Part shown: in pieces, positions 1 to 20,740 of the stretch
Numbering within the stretch: the first letter of the stretch is position 1
Layout of the letters: each line of letters starts with the position of its first letter
From: Mnemiopsis leidyi
Taxonomy: Eukaryota
NCBI GenBank assembly: GCA_048537945.1
Contig: CM108484.1
Span: forward strand, 18,945,034-19,009,033
Length of the DNA stretch: 64,000 bases
Direction of reading: 5' to 3'
Program-made: the position numbers and the translations under genes
The notes under the pieces: model-generated
The model's input: only the letters and a program-made list of their open reading frames with translations
What the model was told of the DNA's origin: nothing
Databases searched by the model: none

Positions 1-1212
1 TCCTTACAAATACAACATATAGGTAAAACACACACACATATATACAACGTGTTTTCACGACGTTGTAATGCTTACTAAATTTTCCCGAACGCCCGTTTCC
101 TGGTCGAACTAATTATATTCATGCGCTGCTCGCTGTGTCTTCTCCACTCCGAGACTCAATAAGACAAGAGAATCAGGTCAGGCTGCCTATCGCGGTGTTC
201 TGCTTTCTCCGCCATCTTCAGGTCACGTGACCCCGTCAAGGAGGTGTCACGTGATACAACTTTGTCTTGCATTCTGTCAAACCTGCTATTTCTGGCCTGC
301 AAATTATTCGTTTTTGCACCTCGCCTACCGCAGTGCTACAACTTTTCTTGGTCTATATTTTAAAAGTGATTGTCGGACTAGTTGTTCAGTGTTTGGAGTT
401 GTTTTATTCAAAGTTCATGAAATTTGTTGAGGCCTTCTTTTTATTCTCTTTAACAAGTGACTAAATTAATTCCTTTTTTGTTGGAAAACTTGTTCGTTCC
501 ATCTTTACTCAGGATTTGAATATAATGCAAGACGTGTCTAAGAACAAGCCAAGTCCTTTGTTTGATAGCTACGGAAGACTTAATGCTCGGACTCTCTTCT
601 ATGCTGTATTAATTATATCTTATTATGTTAGCATCTTTACATCAAATTAAACTATATTTAAACTCCTTCCTCAAAACTTCGGACTCCTTGTCGAGTATAA
701 GTAGTTTACTCGTCTTCAGTTTTCATATACGATACAGTTTTGAGTAGCTAATGATACTTCAACAACATGACGTTACACATGATATTTTACTTTTCTATAT
801 TTACATTTCTTTACATTGGTTGCTTTCTCAAACTGTGGCAGTCTAGAGCGGCAAGGGTTTAGTTTTTGACAGTTAAATAATTTCCAAACCAGTTCAATTG
901 AAAAAGTAGTCTCGCAAATAATGTACCTCCGTGAACAATTGGGAGCTGCATTTTATAATTTCTGTTTGATTTGATTAGCCATAGTAGTTGACAATATCTC
1001 AGCCATTATCTAATACAGGCGCCAATGTTAGGACCTGTCCATCCCAATGCAACCTGAGAGAAATATCATTATCGAAATGAACTTTCTAGGTCCATTGAAC
1101 ATCTGTCGTCTAGAGCACAGTAGTGTCGGTCCACCAACTGTGCACTATTACTCGGTCTCGCAACCTTTATATCTGACTGAGTGCGATTCTCTCTAGTGGA
1201 TCGTAACACGGA

Positions 1213-1409
<197 letters not shown>

Positions 1410-1587
1410 GTAAACCTCGCGTCATGTCACACTTACCGCTCAGTTGTCATATCTCTACCTACTCTTACATATCACGTGACCTGACATAGTCGCCAAATTC
1501 GCACTCCCTGTTTAACACGTGTGTTAAGTATCACGTGACACTGTAAACGTGATTCAGGTGTAAATGTACACATGATACAAGTGTAAA

Positions 1588-1617
1588 ATGTGTGTATTTG
1601 TGTGTGTATGTGTCTAT

Positions 1618-1661
<44 letters not shown>

Positions 1662-1662
1662 A
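1588..1662. repeat. (GT)n/(GA)n compound microsatellite
   Basis: Direct reading of the sequence. Confidence 0.95.
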
Positions 1663-2642
1663 TGTCCTAGAGAACCAGAAGTCCGATATCCAGGGAGAGA
1701 GTTAGGGCACTGTAGAGCTTCCCAAGAAGTTGTTATGTCACTCGGGTCTGACACTTGTCACTACTCCACCCTCTCCTTTAGTGCTCACTACTGACATCTA
1801 CCCTTCCTTTTGCTCTAATTCCTCCCTCTTTGGAAGCTTTTATTATAGTTCATTTGTGGGTGCTCTGTCGAACTTAATCCATCTGTTCCATTTATCGAAA
1901 TTTATTATTCCCGAAATCTCAAGATTATTTACGATTCTTCTAGCATCGACTTTGAAGTACCAGCCTAGCGAACCCCATTGCCAACTGGGTTTTGGTACAC
2001 TCCTGCAATCCAAAAGAACCCTTAGAAACGTAAGCCACAAGGCGGTTGTAGCCTTCTCGTTAATTCGGGAAGGTAAAGCGGATGCCAACCTAGGATCGAC
2101 TTAGGATTGACTGTATCCAGACAATCATATCCAGCTGTTTTGTACTTATCAAAGGTCTGCTGTTTTTACTTAAACATTCGTTCTGTGCTTATAAACTCAA
2201 CTCCCTTACACATTGGTTTAAAATGGTTGCCTCTGTTTTCAAATTCTGTGACAACTTTAAACACCAACTTGATTCCTAATAAGCCTTAAATAATATCAAG
2301 ACATGATTTTGCGCCTGCGTAATGCAACAGTATTTATATCTTTCGGTACTATCAATCATTAACGTTCCAATTTTACTGCTTTAGTAATGCCTCAAAGTTT
2401 CAAAGCTTTCCCAAAGTCTATTTCTGAGGTTGTGACGATTCCGCCAGGGTCTCTATAATGCCACTGTTAACTCTACCCAGGGATGACCTAATGCGCCTGC
2501 TGTTGCGAATCCGGCCGAGTGTCCATTTTAAACTTGCAAAATCTGTCGGTGACACGAGCCAAACAGAGCCAATTTATCCAGCTTCATTACACGTATGATT
2601 TAATCGGCCGGAGCCGGTTAAATGTGTTGTCTCCACGAGGGT

Positions 2643-2793
<151 letters not shown>

Positions 2794-3714
2794 GTGTGTT
2801 TGTGTCCTCTTGGTTCGGCTATTGTAATATTTTTCCTGTTCCACTGGTTTTCATATTTTCCTGTATTTAGATCGTTTCAGGGAGTGCACGGGCAAAGCCG
2901 AAGGAAAACACGGTTTCTTTTTATGTCTTAGTCAATCGTTATGGTCACGACAATTGTCCATATTTCTATTTCACAATAATTCTTTTTGACTTTTGAATTC
3001 GCGAGCAGCTGTAATTATACTAAGGAATAAAGATGTTCAACATATATAGTTTACAGTGTGTTGCTAAGCTATAATATGTATTAACTCAACTCTGACAATT
3101 TGCGAAGGAACGCCCTTTCAAGCCATGCAGCACCTGGTCTTTAATTGCTATTTTCGTACCTTTCAACTATTTTCAACGTCTCGAGTTCTCGGAATTTGCG
3201 TTTGTCTGGTGCTGACACGACTACAAGGCTACACAGTGTGCTCCTCCATGAAAAGCGAGCGAGTCCTGATAAAAATACTCCTCTTGAAAATCGTATTATA
3301 ATTGATTTGCTAATTGAAGGAGAAGTAGCAGCCTATGACAGAGCTAGTTGCCGTGTCACATTAATTTATCTGACGAATATAGCGGTGCAGTGTGTGTGTT
3401 GAAAAGTTGCGTGTAAACTTTTCTTTGTGTTGAAACGCTCATTTAACATCGTGTTCCTCATTCCTTTATCTTCAAATTCGTAACCTTCATCAGGTTAGAA
3501 TTTATCTGTTTTGACAATATGATAATTCAACACTTTTCACACCAATTTACATTTACAATGATTTTGTGGCATCTCTGCAGCTGTCGCAATGGTTTAGCAC
3601 ATCGTACAACACATATTACGATCAGCTCATTATAAAAGTTATCAATTTATGCCTGATCATAGTGTTGTGATTTGTTAACTAATCATCTGACTGATCCTAG
3701 CAAGGCTATTAATC

Positions 3715-3771
3715 ATGAGGGAATACAAACTTGTCGTGCTCGGATCCGGTGGTGTTGGCAAGTCTGCCTTG
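3715..3771 (+). CDS. RAP1: Rap1 small GTPase, coding exon 1 (MREYKLVVLGSGGVGKSAL)
   Basis: ATG at 3715. P-loop GSGGVGKS is present. GTAAGT donor at 3772, phase 0. Confidence 0.9.
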
Positions 3772-3850
3772 GTAAGTGTGATTTAACAGCTTTTACACAG
3801 CAATCACTCTTGTTTAATTGTACTACAAGATATATTGTATAATCATTTAA

Positions 3851-4276
3851 CTGTTATACTACTTTATTGAAGTGTTATATTACTTTATTTAACTGTTATA
3901 CTACTTTAATTAACTGTTATACTACTTTATTTAACTGTTATACTACTTTATTTAACTGTTATACTACTTTATTGAAGTGTTATACTACTTAATTTAACTG
4001 TTGTACTACTTTATTGAAGTGTTATACTACTTAATACTTTATTAAAGTGTTATACTACTTTAATTAACTGTTATACTATACTACCTTATATAACTGTTAT
4101 ACTACTTTATTTAACTGTTATAATACTTTATTTAACTGTTATAATACTTTATTGAAGTGTTATATTACTTTATTTAACTGTTATACTACTTTAATTAACT
4201 GTTTCACTACTTTATTTAACTGTTATACCACTTTATTTAACTATATACTACTTTATTTAACTGTTTAAATACTACT
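3851..4276. repeat. ~22-24-bp AT-rich minisatellite (AACTGTTATACTACTTTATTT)n in Rap1 intron 1
   Basis: About 18 tandem units, visible by eye. Confidence 0.9.
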
Positions 4277-4500
4277 AATCTCTAGTCACAGCTCTATCTA
4301 GTATCGTGTTAGATTTTCTGTCTATTCACGGAGTCATTATTATATGTGTAAATATTTGTTGCTATTTTTAGCATCTCATTTTCCTGTCAAAATCTGGGCA
4401 AGTTCATTTAACGCCAGGTGTTTATTACCTTTCTTGATTACAGTTTTTATCTGAGTTAATTTTGGAAATTATCTCTCCTCTTGAGCAACTAATTTTTCAG

Positions 4501-4569
4501 ACAGTGCAATTTGTCCAAGGCATTTTCGTAGAAAAATATGATCCAACGATCGAGGATTCATACAGAAAG
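4501..4569 (+). CDS. RAP1: Rap1 exon 2 ([23 protein letters not shown], switch I)
   Basis: tttttcag acceptor and GTAAGA donor. The peptide matches the Ras-family effector loop. Confidence 0.9.
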
Positions 4570-4724
4570 GTAAGAGAGCAAGACAAGTTATTTGTCAATT
4601 TTTAAAAAATACTGAAAACACAAACTATTTATAGAGTTATGCTAGGCGGCTAATGTTGTCAGCCGATGATAAATGGTAGCCGCAGCGCGAGCAGTCTGTC
4701 GAAAACAACCTTTAATCTCTTTAA

Positions 4725-6380
4725 GGGGGAATTGCCAAAAATTGTCCAGTGAATTTGACTGTGCAATAACTTAATGTACTCCGATTGGCATCGAATGCAC
4801 GCTCAAATAGTGGTTTTTGAATATTCCCATTTTGGCAAAAAAGGATATTGTGATTATTTTGAAAAACCACACTTTTTCACAGAAATTACTAGAATCTTTG
4901 TATTTTCCACAATTTGCACAAAACTAACACGAAAATCTTAGGAAACCTGGCTGACACCTTTGTCTATTTGCTGTAAAATTTTCATGAAAATTCATTGTAA
5001 ATTGATTGAGCTGTACTTTCACAAAGGTGATAACTACAGAAATCTAAACTTTGAGATCAAACAACTTTGAAAATTTACTGACGCTGCTGTGGACATCAAG
5101 CGAACTTGAAACTTTGCACACTGTTAGACAATGGTCTTAGAAAGTTTTTGGTGCTATGAAAAGTTGGTTTTAAAGGAAAGGGAAAATATTATGGGCACCT
5201 GGAATAAAAGAAGCAATTTTTCTGCCAAATTTCGACTTGAAGACAAAAAATTGTTAGAGCCACCCTTGAGTTGTCTAAATGCCAGATATAAGGTAAATTT
5301 TCACGAACATACTTTATCTGACCCGGGTGTATTGGTTTTGGGCTGTAAATCGAACACTTTTGTAAGTTTACCACAACAACACTTTGAGGGATTTGTGTAT
5401 ATTTTTCTTTCCTTTGCTTTTTCTGAAAATGTTGAACAATTTTCATGGTCATATTTGAATTCTATGCTTAAAAATAGTCTTAGAAAGTGTGTCATAACAA
5501 TCTTTGTGACTAATGAGTTTTTCTTAAAAATTCTCGATTTTGCCCTTGCAAAAAATTTTCTTTTGAATAAAAAAATTTTAATCTTTGTATTGTTTTGAAA
5601 GAGTCCTCTTCAGTTAATTTCGACCTAAAAATACGTTTGCCGAGGTCAAAACTAGTCTAAAATGGAAGATGTATGCGCAAGAGAACAATAGTTGTCCAAG
5701 AGTGACAAAATATGGTATGTTTAAAATATATCTGATATCCGATTTCAAGCCCAAAACCAATACACCCGGGTCAGATAAAGTATGTTTATGAATAATGACC
5801 TTATATCTGGCATTTAGACAACTTTAGGGTGGCTCTAACAATTTTTTGTCTTCAAGTTGCAATTTGGCAGGAAAATTGCCATTTTCTTTTCAACTGGCCG
5901 AGTTTTGTTGATCTTTCCCCGGAAACTGACTTTCCATAGCACCAAAAACTTTCTGAAACCATTTTTTAGCACCTTGAGAAGTCTCGATTTCCCAGAGTTT
6001 TCTCGGTGGCCATTGGAAATTTCCAAACAAATTTGACTTGAAGAGTTAAATTTTTGGGGTAAGCAACTTTGAACAATTACCGTGCAATTAATAATCCACG
6101 TATCATCATGAAACTTTTGTAGCCATTTCAATATGGTTCGATCAAAATTCTGTGAAATTTTCATCTCTTCACAATGTAAATTGACTGAGTTATGAAAATT
6201 TTACTATTAATCCCAGAAAGGTACGTTTTCTTGAAAAAATCAGATTCTGCCCAATTGCAAAAATGGGAATTCTCAAAATCCACTATTTTAGCGTGAATTC
6301 GATGCCCATTGGTTTACTTTAACACCCTGTACAGTCAGATTCACTGGACGCCACAAACCCCTGTTTTTGGCAATTCCCCC
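4725..6380. mobile_element. Non-autonomous foldback/MITE (1.66 kb) with ~630-bp inverted arms, in Rap1 intron 2
   Basis: The termini GGGGGAATTGCCAAAAATTGTCCAGTGAATTTGAC and its complement GTCAGATTCACTGGAC...GGCAATTCCCCC are flanked by TTAA on both sides (4721-4724 and 6381-6384). The arms 4725-5358 and 5731-6380 are imperfect reverse complements of each other. Confidence 0.75.
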
Positions 6381-6530
6381 TTAAGATATAGTATGGATTT
6401 TTGACCTCTGAAAGTCTATTAAGCTGAAAAGCTGTTGAAACTTGTGCGTCAATCCAACTGTTAGAAGTCTACTGAGATCATATCTTTACATATTTTCATG
6501 ATTACAGACTTTGTAGCACAGTTTTAGCTG

Positions 6531-6625
6531 TACACAGCACACACTACATATTTCTCTACACAGCACACACTACCTATTTCTCTACACAGCACACTCTACC
6601 TATTTCTCTACAGCACACACTACTA
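6531..6625. repeat. 27-bp tandem repeat x3.5 (TACACAGCACACACTACCTATTTCTC)
   Basis: Direct reading of the sequence. Confidence 0.8.
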
Positions 6626-7029
6626 CCCATGCCTTGGTTCTATACACCGGTCCTAACAAAGTCTTATTGTCGTTCACAAGGCCAGGACAAATTTAGAACT
6701 TTCACTAACAATGCACTCAATTTAACCTAATTTGTATATCTCTGAGGTCAGCTTTACTCTCACCGCGACGCTGAGCAATCCTCCTTTCTCTGAATTTAGT
6801 AAATATGGAGCTAGTAAGCCTTAATGGACCATATCAGAGCACAGTACAATTACTGTAAACATATACCCATTACAGCACAATAGCATTAGAGCTGATTTGT
6901 CCAGGTCCTTAGCCCCTGACCGCTACTAAATCATTAAATCGCTCGTTTGCGACTCAAATATGCGGCTGTTACCACCTAGTTGTGCTAATTTTTCAGATTT
7001 ACAGTGTACTTACACACGTTCTATTTCAG

Positions 7030-7086
7030 CAAGTGGAGATCGACAATCAGCAGTGTATGTTGGAGATATTAGATACCGCAGGAACG
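7030..7086 (+). CDS. RAP1: Rap1 exon 3 (QVEIDNQQCMLEILDTAGT, switch II DTAG)
   Basis: tttcag acceptor at 7029. DTAG motif present. GTAAGA donor at 7087. Confidence 0.9.
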
Positions 7087-7669
7087 GTAAGATTTAATTT
7101 TTAATTTAGATTAAATTGAACATACATCGACACCCTTAATGCTACTTTTATGTTTTGCACATTCATCGATACTTATAATGCTATGGCCTATGTTTTTTGG
7201 AGTTAAAAAAAGGTTTTTATGTGGAACCGAAGACACTGTCGCTACTGTCGAAAATTGTACTGAGAATTCAACAAAAGAAACTTGTCAACATGAAGCTTAT
7301 TCTTCCTGGATCCTAGCTTTCATCCACTTCCTTTAGCTTTTCTCTGTGTTCCTCTAACAATAAAGTCCATTATCTGCAATCCTTTATTTTACATAATGTT
7401 AAAACAAAAACCGTCTCACTTTTTAAAACCGCTCCACAACGCCTCTGCAGCGGTTTGCTATGTGCCATGTACGGCTTTATTCAATTTGCAGCGCACGCAG
7501 CTCCGCCTATAGTGGCTGTTGACGCCTAGATTCTGAGAGCAACTTATCTGGAAACGTATATGTGTACGTGACACACCAGATTATCTTATCGCACACATGT
7601 GACTCCTCACTGCTCATGTATTGGACTTGTCCGACGTGCATTCTAAATTTAACTCGTTCCACTGACTAA

Positions 7670-7954
<285 letters not shown>

Positions 7955-8654
7955 TAATCGAATAATACAGTTCAGCCCGTGCTTGTCATGACTTAACGTT
8001 AGTGTAGAGGCATAACGTCATTTATTTGATGTGAGGTGTCAGATGTTTCCATGGCAACTGCAGATTTCATATCTTAGGTAATTGGGCAACTCTTTAAGAT
8101 GATTTAAAAACTATGCTAGATATGAGAATGTTACCTTATATGGCAATGTAACTGTGATAAGATTATCATAGCTGCGATGTCTAAGAAATACGAATCGACA
8201 TCCTTTTTAACGAGCAGTAAAAGCTGACGCACAAATTGAATTGTATGTTGACCCTAATAAGACCCGTTCATTTAATTACAAACCAGCCACTAGGGCCAGC
8301 CTATAAATATCCCATTACTCCATTGATTTTAATGCCTTTTTAGTCCTATTAAAGGGTTTGTATATTCCTCAAATTCGTTCTTGCGCTGGTTGCTAGATTA
8401 AGTTTTACGATCATTAGTGCTTTAGTGGCTAAAACGTACATATCCAATATCAACTAAAAAATGGTAGTCTCGACTTAGAGGTTCACTATTAAGTTGATAC
8501 TTATTATAAAACACCTCTTTGAACAACGTACAAAACTTAATTACATTGCGATATATCGTTAACAACTCATAAACTGCACGCCTGTGTAAACTACAAACAT
8601 TCCAAGAATGTGCACACAGTGAAAATCCCGAGAATGGAATGCGGTATGTTTCAG

Positions 8655-8798
8655 GTGCCGATGTGTCTGGTTGGAAACAAGTGTGATCTTGAGGACGAAA
8701 GAGTTGTCGGAAAGGACCAGGGAAATCAGCTGAGCAAGGAATTCAATAACTGCACCTTTATGGAGACCTCCGCAAAGCAGAAAATTAACGTTAACGAG
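8655..8798 (+). CDS. RAP1: Rap1 exon 5 ([12 protein letters not shown]...[12 protein letters not shown]; NKxD and SAK motifs)
   Basis: tttcag acceptor and GTAGGT donor. G4 motif NKCD and G5 motif SAK are present. Confidence 0.9.
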
Positions 8799-9296
8799 GT
8801 AGGTTGATTAGTTTACGATACGTGAATTGAACAAGCTTCTCACATCTGCTTCCGTGTGTAGTTGGTTATTACTAGGTAAAACTTACTGCGACTCTACCAT
8901 TATTGAGGGCACTTAGTATGGCGCGCAACGTCTCGCGCGCGTATTTTGTAGAAAGAACTTATGATTGCTTATGATTGCCTGATCTGCTAATGTAGTCTAG
9001 AAAAAAGATCGATTCAATGTCAATGTTTCATCTGACATCATTTATCCATTATAGAACCTGTGAGAAAATCTGTTAAGTAGTGTGTTATAAAGAAGATAAA
9101 CGAATATTCTTATGAATTCCGACAAAAGCGGCTAGCGCCGATTAATACCGACCGTTTACGATAAAATTAGGGAATGTACCAAATGTAGAGTTTTGCCTGT
9201 TAATCTGTTACCGAGAAATCGCATAACCCGATTTAATATTACGGCTGACGTCAGTGAACACGACAAGATCTTTATGCGTGGATTAAATAATTTCAG

Positions 9297-9389
9297 ATTT
9301 TCATAGACTTAGTGCGTCAAATAAATAGCAAGACGCCAGGAGTGGGAAAGGGAAACGACAGCAGCGGCTCGTGCTGTGTCCTTCTATAG
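9297..9389 (+). CDS. RAP1: Rap1 alternative terminal exon a (IFIDLVRQINSKTPGVGKGNDSSGSCCVLL*; Cys-Cys + CAAX, no polybasic stretch)
   Basis: tttcag acceptor at 9296 in phase with the exon-5 donor. The 30-codon ORF ends in CVLL then TAG. It is homologous to exon b over IFxDLVxQINSK. Confidence 0.7.
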   Translation: MFIDLVRQINSKTPGVGKGNDSSGSCCVLL

Positions 9390-9811
9390 AGTATGAAATG
9401 TGAGCTTTCACTTCCACTGATTGAGCATGTAACGGGTAGTCCAGCAGCCGTGTGCTCACTCGTGCACGTGCGTTTCGCACACTGTGCAGTGTCCACGTGC
9501 ACATGCGTTTGTGAATGTGATTGGACGAGCGTGTGCTGCGCATTTGGCTGATTGTGTTAACGAGAGTGTGTGTTGGTGTGTTTTAGACGAAGATTACCAT
9601 ATCATTTCTGTTGGGTTTCAAAGCCTCGGCAGTGATTTGCTTAGGGGTCAAATTTGTACAGGTTTTGTTTTGTACTGTAAAGCAAAGGTTATCTGTTGGG
9701 AGATTGCACATTCAGCAGTTTTTTACATGATTACATTTTAAAGGGATATCGACGTATTATTTGTGCAGTTCACTTTGCTGAAAGTTGATTCTAACTATCA
9801 TTTTGTTTCAG

Positions 9812-9898
9812 ATTTTCTACGATTTGGTGCATCAAATAAACAGCAAAAATCCTGGAATAGACAACCGAAGAAAGAAGAAAATTTGTGTGTTATTATAA
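9812..9898 (+). CDS. RAP1: Rap1 alternative terminal exon b (IFYDLVHQINSKNPGIDNRRKKKICVLL*; polybasic + CAAX)
   Basis: tttgtttcag acceptor in phase 0. Canonical Rap1-type tail: a KKK stretch followed by CAAX CVLL, then TAA. Confidence 0.8.
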   Translation: MFYDLVHQINSKNPGIDNRRKKKICVLL

Positions 9899-12252
9899 AC
9901 TAGAGCTGTGGAGTTATAGTTATAAAAGAGCACATCACGGACCGTATATCGTAATCTTTAGTAAAAATATAGATACACTTGCACTGGAGCTAATTGTTTG
10001 TTAATAGTCTTGGTGAATGAAAGGGCGTGAACTTTGCCGTCATGCCACGTCGAAATTGTTTGACTGTCACGAATTTTTTTTCCCCGTGAAATCGCCCCTT
10101 TTGATACATGCGTGTGATGCCTGAATCGTTTTCCGTTGTTTCGACCGATTCGCACATTTAATGTTCTGCGTGCGAGAAATTGTTTTTCCAAAGTTATAGA
10201 ATTTACTTCTACTCTTCTTTAGTTGTGATTGATGTCGATAACGTGTATTATGTTTTAGTACTTTACCACCAATTTTGGATGTATATCCTTTTTCGGGCTT
10301 TACACATTTTACCACTTCATACATTGCTATCACGACTGAACTGGCCGTGTTATCACTTGGCCACCCATTTCCCTTGTCTTATAAAAGTTGGAAACGAGTG
10401 TTCCTACCTTTGATGAGATGTTTTTATGCTTCTGTATCGTTTATTTGCATGTAAATAGTAAGATAGTAAAATGTGAGATGGTTTCCAAGTGATTTGTACC
10501 CCTTCTAATGCCGTAGTTTCACAGTATTAAAACATAGGACTTTTGATGAATTAAACAAACGTTGGAAAACCGTGTTTGAAACATCGTTACATCATTTTAC
10601 CGTGTTAAAAGGTTTGTAGTAATTATAACGTATGATTGTAATACTTATGTCTAATATGAAATGTTAAATGAGTAGGGTAGCTTCAAAACTTACTTTTTGT
10701 GATACAAATATGACTGAGCGTTGTCTCGGGACAATTTAAATCAATGTTAACGCTGTAGGATTCACAGTCAACTATGATACACGAGAAATGGGAGTCTTTG
10801 CGGAGCATAAGTTTACTAATTGAGCCTGTGTTCTGCTCCCCTTGAATCATGTGTTTGATTTTTCGGTATATTAATAATCTTAGCAGTTAAGATTAAACTC
10901 TTTCAATTGTTGTTTGATTTATTTCTCAATCCAAAAAAAAGAGATGTACAACAACAAAATTGAATTGTTGAGATCAGATAATTAAGGGAGTCTGGGACTA
11001 GACTACAAACTTTGCATATTTAACTGAATACATATCAAACTAAATAGTGAACTATGGATATATTATCAGGATATTAAACTGGAAAGATTTGATTTGACAA
11101 GATCTAGATGACATCCTGAAACGATACGCTCGCGCTGTACCGGTACGCCTTTACTTGCTAAACCAGCACAGCATAGCCCATACTTTCATAGAGCCATATA
11201 AAGTACGCATACATCGTCAAGCCTGCTACTGCCGCCCGCGCCCCAAAACTGGCATGGAGATGGATCGCGTCGCAACGTAAGTGGTGAGGTTAGGTAAGCT
11301 TCAGATCGCCTGATCATGCAATGCACACCTCAGCTTTGACGAGATTATATCCATCTACCGTTTTAGCTGCGTGAGTCGGGTATCACCGCGACAACCTCAG
11401 CTTTGTTCACGTTGTTAAGCTACGCGCGCCGCGCGGCCACGACGCCCGCGCCGCGTACAGCGTAGCCGCGTAAGCTACGCGCGTGCTGGAGGCTGCCGCT
11501 TTGCGCGGCAGCAGGGCTATAATTAATTAACAACGTACCTGGCAAGCTCAGTTTAGTCACCAGGCGCATGAATATCAAATATACACGCATCTTTTATATA
11601 TTCAGGAAGATATATTATATGATATTTATGATATGTGCGTGAAACTTATCGGACGTTGCGCCGCGGCTCTCTCTACGTTTCTTGTAGGTTGATATTGATA
11701 ACATACTGTCGCGGCCATCACGCGCTGTCACGCATTTCTGACGCGCATCGCCCGTTGATACGTTTCCCTCCGTTTGTTGCAAATTAACAATTAGCCTGAG
11801 GTCCCCAGGTAACGTGAAATCTACAACAGTGCAGTAATTGACGAGATGATATCCGTCTAAGTACGTTCTAGCTTACCGGGCGTTGCGCGGCTCTCTCAAC
11901 GTTTCCCTTTCTACGTTTCCCTCCGTTGCAAAGCAACAATTAGCCTGAGGTCCCCAGGCAAGTTTTAGCCAAACGTTGGGAGAGCAGCAAGCTGCGCCAG
12001 GAAAGCTGCAAGCTGCGAGCCGCACGCAAGTCGCGTCGGCGTAAGCACCGTAATTACTGGTTTCATGCCTAACCAGGGCTTGCTTTGACAGAGCCATTTT
12101 GCGCGCGCCGCGTAGCGCAAGCACTTGTATTATCATTGACGAGATTATATCCGTCTAACGTTCTAACGAAACGTTCAGCTTTAGCTGCGTGAGTCGGATA
12201 TCACTGCGACAATTAGTATTATCATGAATAATTGTTTTACAAAATTTTATAA

Positions 12253-13040
12253 GTTGAAAAGTACGAGGATCAAGCAATATTAATCTTTGATTAATGTAAC
12301 AGCCGGTACACGGTATTGTAATCGATTGTCAGACGTTGCCATGCCTGACCTACTGCCGCAACGCAAGGCAAGTAATCGATAAGTTAAGCACACAAATTTC
12401 AGCATGATTGAATTTTGGAACGAAGTCTTGTTTGTTGATTTTTTATTTAAAACTTTTCAAACTTAGCTCTATAGAACAACAATGTCGAAAAACAGTCGTT
12501 CATATTTTGCTTCCGTCTACAAATTGAGATGGCCCACCAAAACGCGAAAATGCTCAGTAAGCTGAGCTCGCAACATATGGGACCTTTGGCAAAATAATCG
12601 GATCGTGAATGTGAAAAATTTTGAGTATGGAGAAATACATCAGAGAAAAGTTGAAAAGTACGAGGATCAAGCATTAATCTTTGATTAATGTAACAGCCGG
12701 TACATGGTATTGTAATAGATTGTCAGACGTTGCCATGCCTGACCTACTGCCGCAACGCAAGGCAAGTAATCGATAAGTTAAGCACACAAATTTCAGCATG
12801 ATTGAATTTTGGAACGAAGTCTTGTTTGTTGATTTTTTATTTAAAACTTTTCAAACTTAGCTCTATAGAACAACAATGTCGAAAAACAGTCGTTAATATT
12901 TTGCTTCCGTCTACAAATTGAGATGGCCCACCAAAACGCGAAAATGCTCAGTAAGCTGAGCTCGCAACATATGGGACCTTTGGCAAAATAATCGGATCGT
13001 GAATGTGAAAAATTTTGAGTATGGAGAAATACATCAGAGA
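12253..13040. repeat. Tandem duplication: two ~395-bp copies, >98% identical
   Basis: 12253-12647 and 12648-13040 are near-identical, from AGTTGAAAAGTACGAGGATCAAGCA through GGAGAAATACATCAGAGA. Confidence 0.9.
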
Positions 13041-13295
13041 ATTGTGAGCTGTGATAAAATCATAATAAACAAACGAATTAAGATATCTGCTCGACAGTAT
13101 ATTGCTCAAGCGAACTATTTCACCTTTACGGATGACATTTTTGTTTTTGTTCGGATCAGCAACTCTCTTCTCCTTTAATTGCTCAACAAGCTTCTTTCTT
13201 TCAATCCTATCTTCAACGGTTCTATCTGGGGAAATGCAAACTTTTTGTACGCTTCAAAGTATCTCAGTTTGCTCGTTTTTCTTAAAATCTGATTA

Positions 13296-14201: not shown

Positions 14202-15626
14202 GGCAAAAGGGTCATATAGTTTGGTGAGTGGGGCAATTGGCGCCATTGGCGCCAATGGATCCACTCAATGGATCAAATGGATGTTCCAATGGCGCCAATG
14301 GCGATGAGGTCAGTGGTGCCAATGGTGGTCACAATCGCCATTGGCGCCAATGGATGTGTTCCATTGGCGACAATGGCGATCGCCATTGGCGACCATTGGC
14401 GCCATTATAATGGATCCATTGGAGCCACTCGATGGCGATACCTTTTTCACGATCGCCACTCAGAGTGAATGGATCATTTGGAATTCCAATGGCGACAATG
14501 GTTCCAATGGCGACAATGGTTCCAATGGCGACAATGGTACCAATGGCGACAATGGCGACAATGGTACCAATGATGACAATGGTACAAACAATGGCGACAA
14601 TGTTACCAATGGCGACAATGGCAATAATGGCACCAATGGCGACAATCAGGAAATAAGTGTACCGACGGTGGTGCCAATGGTGACAGTGGCACCAATGGCG
14701 ACTGCAGTGGTGCCAATGGCGACAATGGTACCAATGGTGACTATGGCGCCAATGGTGACTATGGCGCCAATGGCGACAATGGCACCAATGGTGACTATGG
14801 CGCCAATGGCGATAATGGCGACAATGGAGATAACCATCAAACCATGTTATAATTATGCCGATTTACCGGCATTGATGATTGACGATTATCGGTATAATTA
14901 TTTCCTGATTATATTTATCGCCATTGGTGCCACTGTAACCATTGGTGCCACTGTCACCATTGGTGCCACTGTCACCATTGGTGCCACTGTCACCATTGGC
15001 GCCACCGTCACCATTGACGCCACTGTCACTATTGGAGCCACTGTCGTCAATGGCTATAATCCGGCATAATTATTTCCTGGTTAGCGCCATTGTCGCCATT
15101 GGTACCATTGTCGTCATTGGCACCATTGTCGTCATTGGCACCATTATCGCCATTGGAGCCTTTTCTGCCATTGGTAACATTGTCGCCATTGGTACCATTG
15201 TTGGTTCCATTGTCGCCATTATTACCATTGTCGCCATTGGTACCATTGTCGCCATTAGTACCATTGGCGCCAATGTCGCCATTGTCGGTACCATTGTCGC
15301 CATTGGAACCATTGTCGCCATTGGAATCATTGTCGCCATTGGAATTCCAAATGATCCATTCACTCTGAGTGGCGATCGTGAAAAAGGTATCGCCATCGAG
15401 TGGCTCCAATGGATCCATTATAATGGCGCCAATGGTCGCCAATGGCGATCGCCATTGTCGCCAATGGAAAACATCCATTGGCGCCAATGGCGATTGTGAC
15501 CACCATTGGCACCACTGACCTCATCGCCATTGGCGCCATTGGAACATCCATTTGATCCATTGAGTGGATCCATTGGCGCCAATGGCGCCAATGGCCCCAC
15601 TCACCAAACTATATGACCCTTTTGCC
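14202..15626. mobile_element. 1.43-kb palindromic foldback transposon built of CCAATGGCG/CCATTGGCG 9-bp units, with an 8-bp TSD
   Basis: The outer termini GGCAAAAGGGTCATATAGTTTGGTGAGTGGGG and its complement are flanked by direct AAAAATTG copies (14194-14201 and 15627-15634). An uninterrupted copy of the target, CAATTTTT on the opposite strand, lies at 30931-30938. Confidence 0.85.
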
Positions 15627-16974: not shown

Positions 16975-18444
16975 CACAACAGCCATCAATCTGACATTCC
17001 TTGTTACCTCTTTCCACTCGTAAAGTAAATATTAACCATTATTAATATTCAAACTTGAACACGATATCCTTAAACTAAAAATTGACATACTATAGCAAAC
17101 CAATACACAAGAATCTACCTATCAACCTGATCCCTCCCGAAGAAATAACATTGACTAGACTGACCCATTTCCAGAACTGAGACCTAGAACGGAAACAACT
17201 CAGATCGTACCCCCGTTACCTAGTATGATAAAAGGAAAAGAGGCTATAACCACAGAACCCGAATTACCAGAACTGTATCAGAGCACTGAATTACCAGAAC
17301 TGTATCAGAGCACTGAAACTCCCCCCCCTCACTCCACCGTTAGTAGAAAAGAAGTCATCAAGCCCCAACCTTACTGAAGGTATGACTAAATACTTTAGCC
17401 ATCAGTCTGGCAGTCAAACTTATCCCACTTATCTCTTCTCACTAGCAACGTTCATCATTTACTACTGTTAACATCTATGTAGTGCACAAACTTTCCCACC
17501 TAAAGATTTCTTGATGAAGAGCTCTACTTTCAACTTAAATTGCGCAAACACTTCAATTACAATCACGCTCTAAACGACTCTCGTTCTTAAATCTGTTTCT
17601 ATCGCTTGTGACTAATATACTGCTAACACGCACTACTCACTAGGAGAAGAGCAAGAGCCGCCCACACCAACTTTCAGAGTTGGGATCTGCTTGAAGTCAC
17701 TGAACACAACTCTGGAACAAGCAGACTTATAGATAACATCAGACTCATTCTACTGAAAGCCACGCTAGAAACACCTGCCTTTGCAGACCTAGAGGTCACT
17801 AACAACATCACTGACATCAAAGGCAATAAGATCATCATAAAGACTAAGAACTTTCAAACCATAAATCTGGTGAGACATCATGAGTGTAAACGACAGATAT
17901 ACTACCATCATCGAAGAGGACCTTCCAGGGTTACGTGTTAGAATTTTACTACCTGACAAGAGAGACAGATCAGCGCCAGACATCACTCAGGATTTGGGCA
18001 ACGTTCAAGGGTTAGGTCTCACCGACACAAACCACGGTTAGACTAGATTGTAATACCACTATTTGTAACAAGCCTGCTGGGGCTTGGACTAGATTGAAAT
18101 ACCACTTTTTGCATTAAGCCTTCTGGGGCACTGCAGTTAATGACGATTTAATGAAATTTTATATTTAACGAAACTGTATATTTAATGAAATTTTATATTT
18201 ATTGAAATTTTGAGCTTTTTAGATAATTTTTAGAAAATGATAATTTTTAGATAATCTTGAGCTTGTTAGATAAAACGTGTGTTGAGCTGACAATGATTAA
18301 TTACCAATCTAAGCGAGTGACAACTAAATCTAGCGATAATCCGAGTTTTACTACAACTAAGTACTAAATAACAAGTTACTAGACTACGCAAAATTAGCAT
18401 CCCAACTACACTACGGACTCCTCTATTACTTCCCCTTCAACAAC

Positions 18445-20740
18445 ACACTGTTACTATAGCAACGACACACTGTTACCAAGCAACCCCACACTGTTACCAT
18501 AACAACTACAAACTGTTACTATAGCAACGACACACTGTTACCAAAGCAACCCCACACTGTTACCATAACAACTACAAACTGTTACTATAGCAACGACACA
18601 CTGTTACCATAGCAACGACACACTGTTACCATATCAACCCCACATTGTTACCATAACAACTACAAACTGTTACCATAGCATCGACACACTGTTACCATAG
18701 CAACTACAAACTGTTACTATAGCAACGACACACTGTTACCATAGCAACGACACACTGTTACCAAAGCAACCCCACACTGTTACCATAACAACTACAAACT
18801 GTTACTATAGCAACGACACACTGTTACCATAGCAACGACACACTTTTACCATATCAACCCCACACTGTTACCAAAACAACTACAAACTGTTACCATAGCA
18901 TCCACACACTGTTACCATAGCAACCTCACATTATTACCAAGCAACTACACGCCGTTGCCATATCAACTACATGACACACTGTTAGTGTTACAAAGTAACT
19001 GCACACTGTTACCATAACAACATCTCTCTACTACCATAGCAACTACACACCGTTACCTTAGCATCGACTCACAGTCACCATAGCAACCACACACTGTCAC
19101 CATAGCAACTACACACTGTTACCATAGCAACTACAAACTGTTACCATCGCAACGACACCCTGTTACCATCGCAACGACACCCTGTTACCATAGCAACCTC
19201 GCACTGTTACCATAGCAACAACACACTGTTACTATAGCAACCCCACACTGTTACCATAACAACGACACACTGTAACCATAGCAACTACACACTGTTACCA
19301 AAGCAACGACACACTGTAACCGTAGCAACGACACACTGTAACCGTAGCAACCTCACACTGTTACCATAGCAACAACACACTGTTACTATAGCAACGACAC
19401 ACTGTTACCATAGCAACGACACACTGTAACCATAGCAACATCACATTATTACCAAGCAACTACACGCTGTTGCCATATCAACTACACACTGTTACTATAG
19501 CAACCCCACACTGTTACCATAACAACTACACACTGTTACCAAAGAAACGACACACTGTTAGCATAGCAACCTCACACTGTTACCATAGCAACAACACACT
19601 GTTACTATAGCAACGACACACTGTTACCATAGCAACGACACACTGTAACCATAGCAACATCACATTATTACCAAGCAACTACACGCTGTAGCCATATCAA
19701 CTACACACTGTTACTATAGCAACCCCACACTGTTACCATATCAACTACACACTGTTAGTGTTACAAAGTAACTACACACTGTTAACATAACAACATCTCT
19801 CTGCTACCATAGCAACTACACACTGTCACCATAGCATCAACCCACTGTCACCATAGCAACTACACACTGTCACCATAGCAACTACAAACTTTTACCATAG
19901 CAACTACAAACTGTTACCATTGCAACGACACCCTGTTACCATAGCAACCTCGCACAGTTACCATAGCAACAACACACTGTTACTATAGCAACCCCACACT
20001 GTTACCATAACAACTACAAACTGTTACCATAGTAACGACACACTGTTACCATAGCAACCTCACACTGTTACCATAGCAACAACACACTGTTACTATAGCA
20101 ACGACACACTGTTACCATAGCAACGACACACTGTTACCAAAGCAACCCCATACTGTTACCAAAGCAACCCCACACTGTTACCATAACAACTACAAACTGT
20201 TACCAAAGCATCGACACACTGTTACCATAGCAACATCACATTATTACCAAGCAACTACACGCTGTTGCCATATCAACTACACACTGTTACTATAGCAACG
20301 ACACACTGTTACCATAGCAACGACACACTGTTACCATAGCAACCCCATACTGTTACCAAAGCAACCCCACACTGTTACCATAACAACTACAAACTGTTAC
20401 CATAGCATCGACACACTGTAACCATAGCAACATCACATTATTACCAAGCAACTACACGCTGTAGCCATATCAACTACACACTGTTAGTGTTACAAAGTAA
20501 CTACACACTGTTAACATAACAACATCTCTCTGCTACCATAGCAACTACACACTGTTACCTTAGCATCGACCCACTGTTACCATAGCAACTACACACTGTC
20601 ACCATAGCAACCCCACACTGTTACCTAAACAACTACAAACTGTTACCATAGCTATAGCATCGACACACCGTTACCATAGCAACCTCACATTATTACCAAG
20701 CAACTACACGCCGTTGCCATATCAACCATACACTGCCGAC
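18445..20740. repeat. 2.3-kb minisatellite, 22-bp unit ACTGTTACCATAGCAACGACAC (~105 units, higher-order periodicity)
   Basis: Direct reading of the sequence. Unit variants recur in ~130-bp higher-order blocks. Confidence 0.95.

Follow-up and report, generated by a model that had tools for sequence, protein, structure and literature searches.

A single Rap1 gene in the ctenophore Mnemiopsis leidyi is spliced into two mRNAs, and their products end in different CAAX tails, one polybasic and the other bearing a Cys-Cys pair, depending upon whether an internal cassette exon is skipped or included. The gene lies in the 64,000-nucleotide stretch of DNA that we analyzed, which we refer to as the window. 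The explanation that fits best, and that we hold with considerable confidence, is that one Rap1 gene with a duplicated tail exon is spliced-leader (SL) trans-spliced and supplies either a polybasic anchor or a Cys-Cys, putatively palmitoylated, anchor. An earlier, sequence-only reading had already proposed that a single Rap1 gene yields two CAAX-ending proteins, one polybasic and one with a Cys-Cys tail and no basic patch, and cDNAs now show both splice forms.

The gene is on the plus strand, and its five coding exons are followed by either of two tail exons:

3701-3771, plus strand: Rap1 exon 1, with 5'UTR at 3701-3714 and coding sequence at 3715-3771 (MREYKLVVLGSGGVGKSAL), as seen in cDNA contigs L007 and L008
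4501-4569, plus strand: exon 2, coding, with the effector loop
7030-7086, plus strand: exon 3, coding, encodes QVEIDNQQCMLEILDTAGT
7739-7879, plus strand: exon 4, coding, whose peptide ends ...RVKDRDD; the spliced coding sequence equals proteins P0001 and P0002 exactly
8655-8798, plus strand: exon 5, the last constitutive coding exon, with donor GAG/gtaggt
9297-9399, plus strand: exon 6a, a 103-nt cassette with coding sequence at 9297-9389, 10 further nt and donor aat/gtgagc at 9399/9400, as seen in cDNA L012
9812-10901, plus strand: exon 6b, terminal, with coding sequence at 9812-9898 if 6a is skipped, and all 3'UTR if 6a is included

In-silico splicing of the five exons to either tail exon reproduced these two database proteins residue for residue. 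When the encoded protein was compared to solved structures, the highest score was to Rap-1b (332 bits, E 5.5e-99), followed by Rap-1A (318 bits), Rap2A (233 bits) and H-, N- and K-Ras (~200 bits). The protein also displays the hallmarks of Rap1, with Thr61 (in DTAGTEQF), Ser39 (in EDSYRK, where Rap2 has Phe39), an effector loop identical to that of Ras, and the NKxD and SAK motifs. Thus, based on the top score to Rap-1b together with Thr61 and Ser39, we conclude that this is a Rap1 orthologue; the closest G domain and each of the diagnostic residues and motifs place it in the Rap1 subfamily.

The window is also rich in repeats. Upstream of the Rap1 gene are two microsatellites, (CA)~97 at 1215-1409 and (GA)~74 at 2643-2789; intron 1 contains a 21-nt minisatellite of ~19.5 copies (3845-4265), and intron 2 contains both a foldback element with 160-nt inverted arms (5193-5352 and 5740-5899, 87% complementary) and a 26-nt repeat of 3.7 copies (6531-6623). 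Elsewhere, 9/18-nt repeats of CAATGGCGA and its reverse complement form two inverted blocks (14487-15343 and 12251-13041), in which there are Asn-Gly-Asp-rich ORFs on both strands and a 394-nt unit duplicated at 98% identity. A 22-nt minisatellite (CAACTACACACTGTTACCATAG, ~104 copies, 18438-20735) accounts for a strong anomaly in the GC/AT skew of the composition profile at 16-20 kb.

The 5' end of the mRNA is not encoded next to the gene. The alignments of L007 and L008 to the window begin at 3699/3701, and ahead of this point both contigs have a leader (...AAATAATTTGAG) missing from the window; this spliced leader (...CTACTATTATACAAATAATTTGAG) occupies nt 1-23 of the two contigs, and the acceptor is cctag/caagg at 3700/3701 (window 3690-3715). 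The ctenophore cDNA contigs are intronless, and those that are 5'-complete carry a leader ending in AATTTGAG, which is likewise not encoded in the window. Among the contigs with the cassette from other taxa, L002, L004, L010 and L011 have the full AATTTGAG, and the 5' ends of L003 and L005 stop inside the leader; related leaders stand at the head of all the ctenophore cDNA contigs. The conserved AATTTGAG is the end of the ctenophore spliced leaders described in Hormiphora and Mnemiopsis (PMC8527503). Since the leader is absent from the window and matches the end of the ctenophore SL, we conclude that the Rap1 mRNA is SL trans-spliced at 3700/3701.

The two tail exons encode IFIDLVRQINSKTPGVGKGNDSSGSCCVLL (9297-9389) and IFYDLVHQINSKNPGIDNRRKKKICVLL (9812-9898), each followed by a stop codon. 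A tttcag acceptor precedes both 9297 and 9812, and because exon 5 ends on a whole codon (...KINVNE/gtaggt), 6a and 6b are both in phase 0; the acceptors and the correct phase had been recognized in the sequence-only reading, and both translation and the codon end of exon 5 agree with it. The similarity between the two exons extends through their acceptors:

9291-9354, plus strand: copy 1 of a tandem duplication (family D1), comprising the acceptor and the 5' part of 6a; copy 2 is 9806-9869, 73% identical

Since this 64-nt direct repeat is 73% identical and includes the acceptors, we attribute it to tandem exon duplication and exclude chance resemblance. Each of the two homologous tandem exons encodes the end of the G domain, a hypervariable region and a CAAX box, as in KRAS. 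The last coding exon of Rap1 was duplicated in tandem long ago, yielding exons 6a and 6b.

Two splice junctions had been singled out beforehand as the ones to look for in RNA, exon 5 to 9297 and exon 5 to 9812, and both are present in M. leidyi cDNA. Isoform b, in which 8798 is joined to 9812, is represented by three contigs (L007, L008 and L009) that continue to 10866-10901; one of these, L008 (Logan SRR26183978), matches the window at 100% identity along 1,539 nt across all exons, with exon 5 joined to 9812, which identifies the window as M. leidyi DNA. Isoform a is represented by L012 (JGI 3300019267), the one a-type M. leidyi cDNA contig that we found, in which 8661-8798 is followed by 9295-9399 (100% identity) and then by 9812-10864 (99% identity). 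This contig came from a search with the 44-aa tail-only protein, which returned 2 candidates, one of which (P0134) pointed to L012. Searching metagenome_contigs for an exact copy of the exon 5/6a junction (AAYGTNAACGAGATTTTCATWGACTTAGTNC) gave 0 matches and was uninformative, as that collection is evidently without the metatranscriptome samples that hold L002-L012.

The structure of L012 changes the status of exon 6a. It had been taken for an alternative terminal exon spanning 9297-9389; the coding extent is correct, but the exon runs to 9399, where the donor aat/gtgagc is used. Since this donor (9399/9400) is spliced to the 6b acceptor, joining 9399 to 9812, exon 6a is not terminal but an internal cassette. 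Thus, when 6a is skipped, 6b supplies the end of a 184-aa Rap1 (...NRRKKKICVLL), and when 6a is included, the product is a 186-aa Rap1 ending in ...GNDSSGSCCVLL, and 10 nt separate its stop codon from the 6a/6b junction. The two isoforms share residues 1-156 and diverge over their last 28-30 residues, and they have a common 3'UTR that extends to ~10864-10901, the range of 3' ends among the M. leidyi cDNA contigs.

Both isoforms are already annotated in GenBank or RefSeq. Exact look-up identified the 186-aa isoform a from M. leidyi as KAL5257988.1 and KAL5257989.1 and the 184-aa isoform b as KAL5257987.1; the 186-aa Cys-Cys form is also XP_063675109.1 ("ras-related protein Rap-1b-like isoform X1") of Bolinopsis microptera, in which isoform X2 is XP_063675110.1. 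Our literature search on alternative CAAX splicing of Rap1 and on Mnemiopsis Rap1 found no paper describing the ctenophore case.

We note that L012 differs from the window at 9 clustered nucleotides in exon 5 (L012 nt 79-114, window 8739-8774), such that EFNNCTF becomes ELDKCKY. Outside this cluster, L012 agrees with the window at the other 102 nt of exon 5 and throughout 6a, and at 99% of the 3'UTR. A DNA search allowing ≤3 mismatches, a six-frame motif scan and tblastn detected no second copy of exon 5 in the window that might explain the ELDKCKY version, which could be a divergent allele, a recent paralogue or an assembly chimera.

The cassette is conserved among ctenophores. In the genomic orthologue from Bolinopsis (L001), both tail exons, both acceptors, the 6a donor, the reading frame and the CAAX boxes are intact, and the order exon 5, 6a, 6b is found in cDNAs of four further ctenophore taxa (L002/L003, L004/L005, L010 and L011), which have ctenophore-type leaders and, where their exons align, show 74-95% identity to the window. 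Between the 6a stop and the junction lie 10 nt in L002/L003, 12 nt in L004/L005, 2 nt in L010 and 38 nt in L011. Moreover, all differences within 6a among the three species compared are synonymous (11 synonymous to 0 non-synonymous between M. leidyi and Bolinopsis, 13 to 0 between M. leidyi and L002, and 12 to 0 between Bolinopsis and L002); the introns that flank 6a are only 48-58% identical. Judging from these substitutions, exon 6a is under strong purifying selection, and the concern raised earlier, that orthologous loci might reveal exon a to be a decayed duplicate, is answered by an intact exon in the orthologous locus and in the cDNAs. The leader of L010 is closest to that of Hormiphora, a cydippid, and on this comparison the 6a cassette probably predates the split between lobates and cydippids.

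The features that distinguish the two tails are also maintained. A Cys-Cys pair and a C-a-a-L box are present in 8 of 8 a-type tails, with ≤3 Lys or Arg (1 in M. leidyi) among the 12 residues that lead up to the CAAX Cys; these tails end in GSCCVLL in three taxa (Mnemiopsis/Bolinopsis, L002 and L004) and otherwise in SSCCVLL, GRCCNLL, KSCCTLL or KSCCSCQLL. The b-type tails (n = 11) have 4-6 Lys or Arg in the same 12-residue stretch, mostly as a run, and a single Cys. In M. leidyi, this contrast is one of RRKKK in isoform b versus SCC with a single Lys in isoform a. The CAAX X residue is Leu in all ctenophore a- and b-type tails, and both M. leidyi tails end in CVLL. Thus, splicing of Rap1 to give a Cys-Cys tail as one of two tails is conserved and ctenophore-wide.

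How the choice between 6a and 6b is made may be reflected in conserved sequences around the two exons. Pyrimidines occupy 9 of 20 positions at the 6a acceptor, a weak tract compared to the 15 of 20 at 6b, and the alignment of M. leidyi and Bolinopsis reveals two conserved intronic blocks:

8822-8875, plus strand: conserved intronic block just downstream of the exon 5 donor, a candidate splicing-regulatory element
9400-9440, plus strand: conserved intronic block directly after the 6a donor, a candidate intronic splicing enhancer

Outside 8822-8875, the intron after exon 5 is ~48% identical between the two species. The block at 9400-9440 includes GCATG, the Rbfox-type core motif, at 9425-9429, the sole copy within 8799-9811, and Bolinopsis has a homologous GCATG (L001 5382). 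In both species, GT/TG-rich tracts follow this block. Constraint is also apparent within the coding sequence, since M. leidyi and Bolinopsis agree in 26 of the 28 third codon positions of 6b, but in only 24 of the 48 of exon 5 (Fisher P = 8.5e-5). Across four ctenophore taxa, the coding part of 6b (9812-9898) has 1-2 synonymous differences, compared to 16-26 in exon 5, and the encoded linker varies (GIDNR, GIGER, GVGER, GVNQS) despite these nearly frozen synonymous sites; the first 45 nt of 6a (9297-9341) are conserved to a similar extent as 6b. This conservation of 6b and early 6a suggests an overlapping RNA-level constraint, which may be splicing control or a function in the 3'UTR. We considered docking/selector RNA pairing between the intron after exon 5 and the 6a/6b region, and dropped it upon finding only inverted matches of 10-17 nt (75-100% complementary). 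Control over which isoform is made probably acts at the weak 6a acceptor and by way of the intronic and exonic sequences conserved around 6a and 6b.

These observations lead to a proposal for how one gene would provide two anchors. The SL-trans-spliced Rap1 pre-mRNA is spliced either without 6a, to yield isoform b, or with 6a, to yield isoform a. At the level of sequence, both isoforms end in a Cys-aliphatic-aliphatic-Leu box of the GGTase-I type, so the Cys at position -4 is predicted to be geranylgeranylated by GGTase-I in each; by established CAAX biology, cleavage of -aaX and methylation would follow. In isoform b, the RRKKK patch would then serve as the second signal by binding electrostatically to acidic lipids of the plasma membrane, the type of signal used by vertebrate Rap1A/B and by KRAS4B. 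Isoform a has no basic patch, and the Cys that adjoins its prenyl-Cys after a Gly/Ser linker is predicted to be S-palmitoylated, as are Cys residues in such a context in yeast Ras2 (CCIIS), RhoB (CCKVL), H- and N-Ras, KRAS4A and Rap2. Palmitoylated isoform a would have a reversible, DHHC-dependent anchor and form a pool that cycles between Golgi and plasma membrane, and its trafficking or its membrane domains would differ from those of isoform b.

Palmitoylation of the extra Cys in isoform a is thus inferred from its sequence and from these analogies, and we weighed against it the proposal that isoform a is prenylated without being palmitoylated, giving a geranylgeranyl-only pool of Rap1 on endomembranes (ER/Golgi). 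The lack of a basic patch in the isoform a tail would fit such a pool, since proteins with only a CAAX signal reside by default on endomembranes. On the other hand, the Cys-Cys pair is invariant in all 8 a-type tails while the linker varies freely (GSCCVLL, GRCCNLL, KSCCTLL, KSCCSCQLL), which argues that the second Cys is itself functional, and a Cys at position -1 relative to the prenyl-Cys is palmitoylated in both yeast Ras2 and RhoB. We therefore regard a geranylgeranyl-only isoform a as unlikely, although it is the most plausible of the alternatives to a palmitoylated one.

A different kind of alternative holds that the 6a peptide is unimportant. Inclusion of 6a could be non-productive and regulatory, serving to lower the output of polybasic Rap1 by means of a premature stop; indeed, 6a does bring an earlier stop and converts the usual coding exon to 3'UTR. 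We consider this very unlikely, however, as a peptide that is not used would not keep its frame and an intact CAAX box, whereas 6a displays 0 non-synonymous versus 11-13 synonymous differences among three species and retains both the CaaL box and the Cys-Cys pair in distant ctenophores. Furthermore, in every species examined the 6a stop precedes the last junction by 2-38 nt, below the ~50-nt threshold for nonsense-mediated decay (NMD), so the mRNA with 6a should escape NMD, although the 50-nt rule was worked out in mammals rather than in ctenophores. Still less can be said for exon a as a decayed or unused duplicate, a pseudo-exon whose annotated isoform is an artefact of gene prediction. A genomic ORF was initially the only support for exon a, but it is now found in spliced, SL-capped cDNAs of Mnemiopsis and four other taxa, and its acceptor, donor, frame and CAAX box are intact in Bolinopsis; the contigs that contain 6a refute the pseudo-exon interpretation, to which we assign almost no probability.

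The pairing of a polybasic and a Cys-rich Rap1 tail is not confined to this genome; it is ctenophore-wide, already recorded in RefSeq and GenBank, and paralleled in bivalves. In RefSeq, the X1 isoforms of Rap-1 from Dreissena, Mya, Ruditapes and Ylistrum end in ...SSSSGCCCVML or ...GGGKKGCCVLL, and polybasic tails are found in the X2 isoforms of Mercenaria and Mizuhopecten. Unlike in ctenophores, the alternative unit in Dreissena is a pair of exons, consisting of its own copy of exon 5 and a tail exon (L006, 23155/24448 versus 31292/32311). In chromadorean nematodes, rap-1 ends in ...CCCSVM or ...CCxCVIM and apparently has the Cys-rich version only. One nematode entry, the 233-aa "Rap-1b" of Toxocara canis (P0017), contains the exon-5 peptide (VPMILVGNK...VNVNE) twice in tandem, which inflates its score; this probably reflects faulty annotation or assembly, or duplicated exons being read through.

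Within each lineage, the two alternative exons have residues in common that are specific to that lineage, QINSK.PG in ctenophores and LVRMINKK or LVRTINKK in bivalves, which fits either separate duplications or concerted evolution. We rejected KGNDSS, which occurs in the tails of both Dreissena and Mnemiopsis, as a sign of common ancestry, since it is not conserved within either clade, and we take it to be a coincidence. It is conceivable, but improbable, that the dual-tail Rap1 is ancestral to animals and was kept in ctenophores and bivalves by concerted evolution of tandem exons; the lineage-specific residues would suit independent duplication and gene conversion equally, and the exon layouts of Mnemiopsis and Dreissena are not alike. 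If the dual tail were ancestral, the electrostatic/palmitoyl anchor switch of Rap1 would date to the base of Metazoa, nematodes would have kept the Cys-rich tail only, and arthropods and vertebrates the polybasic tail only, with Rap2 filling the palmitoylated niche.

Independently of KRAS, ctenophore Rap1 thus arrived at a KRAS-like solution in one of the earliest-branching animal lineages, and bivalve Rap1 probably did so again with another exon layout. Taken together, these systems suggest a recurrent adaptive need for a GTPase to have both an electrostatic anchor and one that cycles by palmitoylation. Since the isoforms are in RefSeq and GenBank and the dual-anchor principle is known, these results are not paradigm-changing; ctenophore and bivalve Rap1 do provide a tractable natural system for the roles of the anchor in adhesion and polarity signaling.

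Among known proteins, the isoform a tail (...SSGSCCVLL) has the same Cys context as Rap2A/B/C, yeast Ras2 (...GGCCIIS) and RhoB (...CCKVL), which lack a polybasic patch and have an S-palmitoylated Cys adjacent or close to the CAAX Cys; the L010 tail (...CCSCQLL) resembles the CCSAC of Rap2 in particular. Unlike ctenophore Rap1, each of these proteins has its tail fixed in a separate gene without alternative splicing, and the M. leidyi G domain is that of Rap1 rather than Rap2 (332 versus 233 bits). The sequence-only reading had set the single ctenophore gene against the separate vertebrate genes RAP1A and RAP1B, a misleading contrast, since RAP1A and RAP1B both encode polybasic, geranylgeranylated proteins, and among vertebrate Rap proteins it is Rap2A/B/C that are palmitoylated.

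In a survey of 167 human RAS-superfamily genes, splice variants of the membrane-targeting tail were found only in KRAS and CDC42 (PMC9882654). The two forms of CDC42, ending in CVLL and, in the brain isoform, CCIF, resemble those of Rap1 in that alternative C-terminal exons switch a polybasic-prenyl tail to a prenyl plus palmitoyl (in Rap1, putatively so) Cys-Cys tail, but the second Cys of CCIF is inside the CAAX box and that of Rap1 isoform a is before it. CDC42 uses alternative 3'-terminal exons (PMC4870516). Rap1, in contrast, has one shared terminal exon and a cassette that is included or skipped, such that the isoforms do not each have a terminal exon, 3'UTR and poly(A) site of their own. 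Thus, the proposed likeness to the design of the CDC42 brain isoform does not hold, because the 6a donor is used and the 3'UTR is shared.

The likeness to KRAS4A/4B, proposed at the same time, is a close fit. In KRAS, exon 4A is a cassette with its own stop codon, after which 4B is 3'UTR, an arrangement that matches 6a and 6b of ctenophore Rap1. In both genes, tandem duplication of the last coding exon has left an upstream copy that acts as a stop-bearing cassette and a shared downstream copy that is translated if the cassette is skipped and otherwise becomes 3'UTR; for Rap1, inclusion is seen in L012, skipping in L007, L008 and L009, and the cassette in relatives in L002-L005, L010 and L011. 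The downstream tail is polybasic with a CAAX box in each case, and the upstream tail has a Cys that is palmitoylatable in KRAS and putatively so in Rap1. Both KRAS isoforms have also been conserved over long periods (PMC9882654). The two systems differ in the GTPase, Ras versus Rap1, and in the lipid, farnesyl versus a predicted geranylgeranyl (CVLL); moreover, KRAS4A has a bipartite basic region and a Cys 6 residues upstream, whereas the Rap1 a-tail lacks a basic patch and has its Cys directly beside the CAAX Cys. Since the ctenophore gene is Rap1 and KRAS exon 4A originated in the jawed-vertebrate ancestor (PMC9882654), the two do not share this arrangement by common descent, and we conclude that the ctenophore case is an independent analogue of KRAS4A/4B rather than its homologue.
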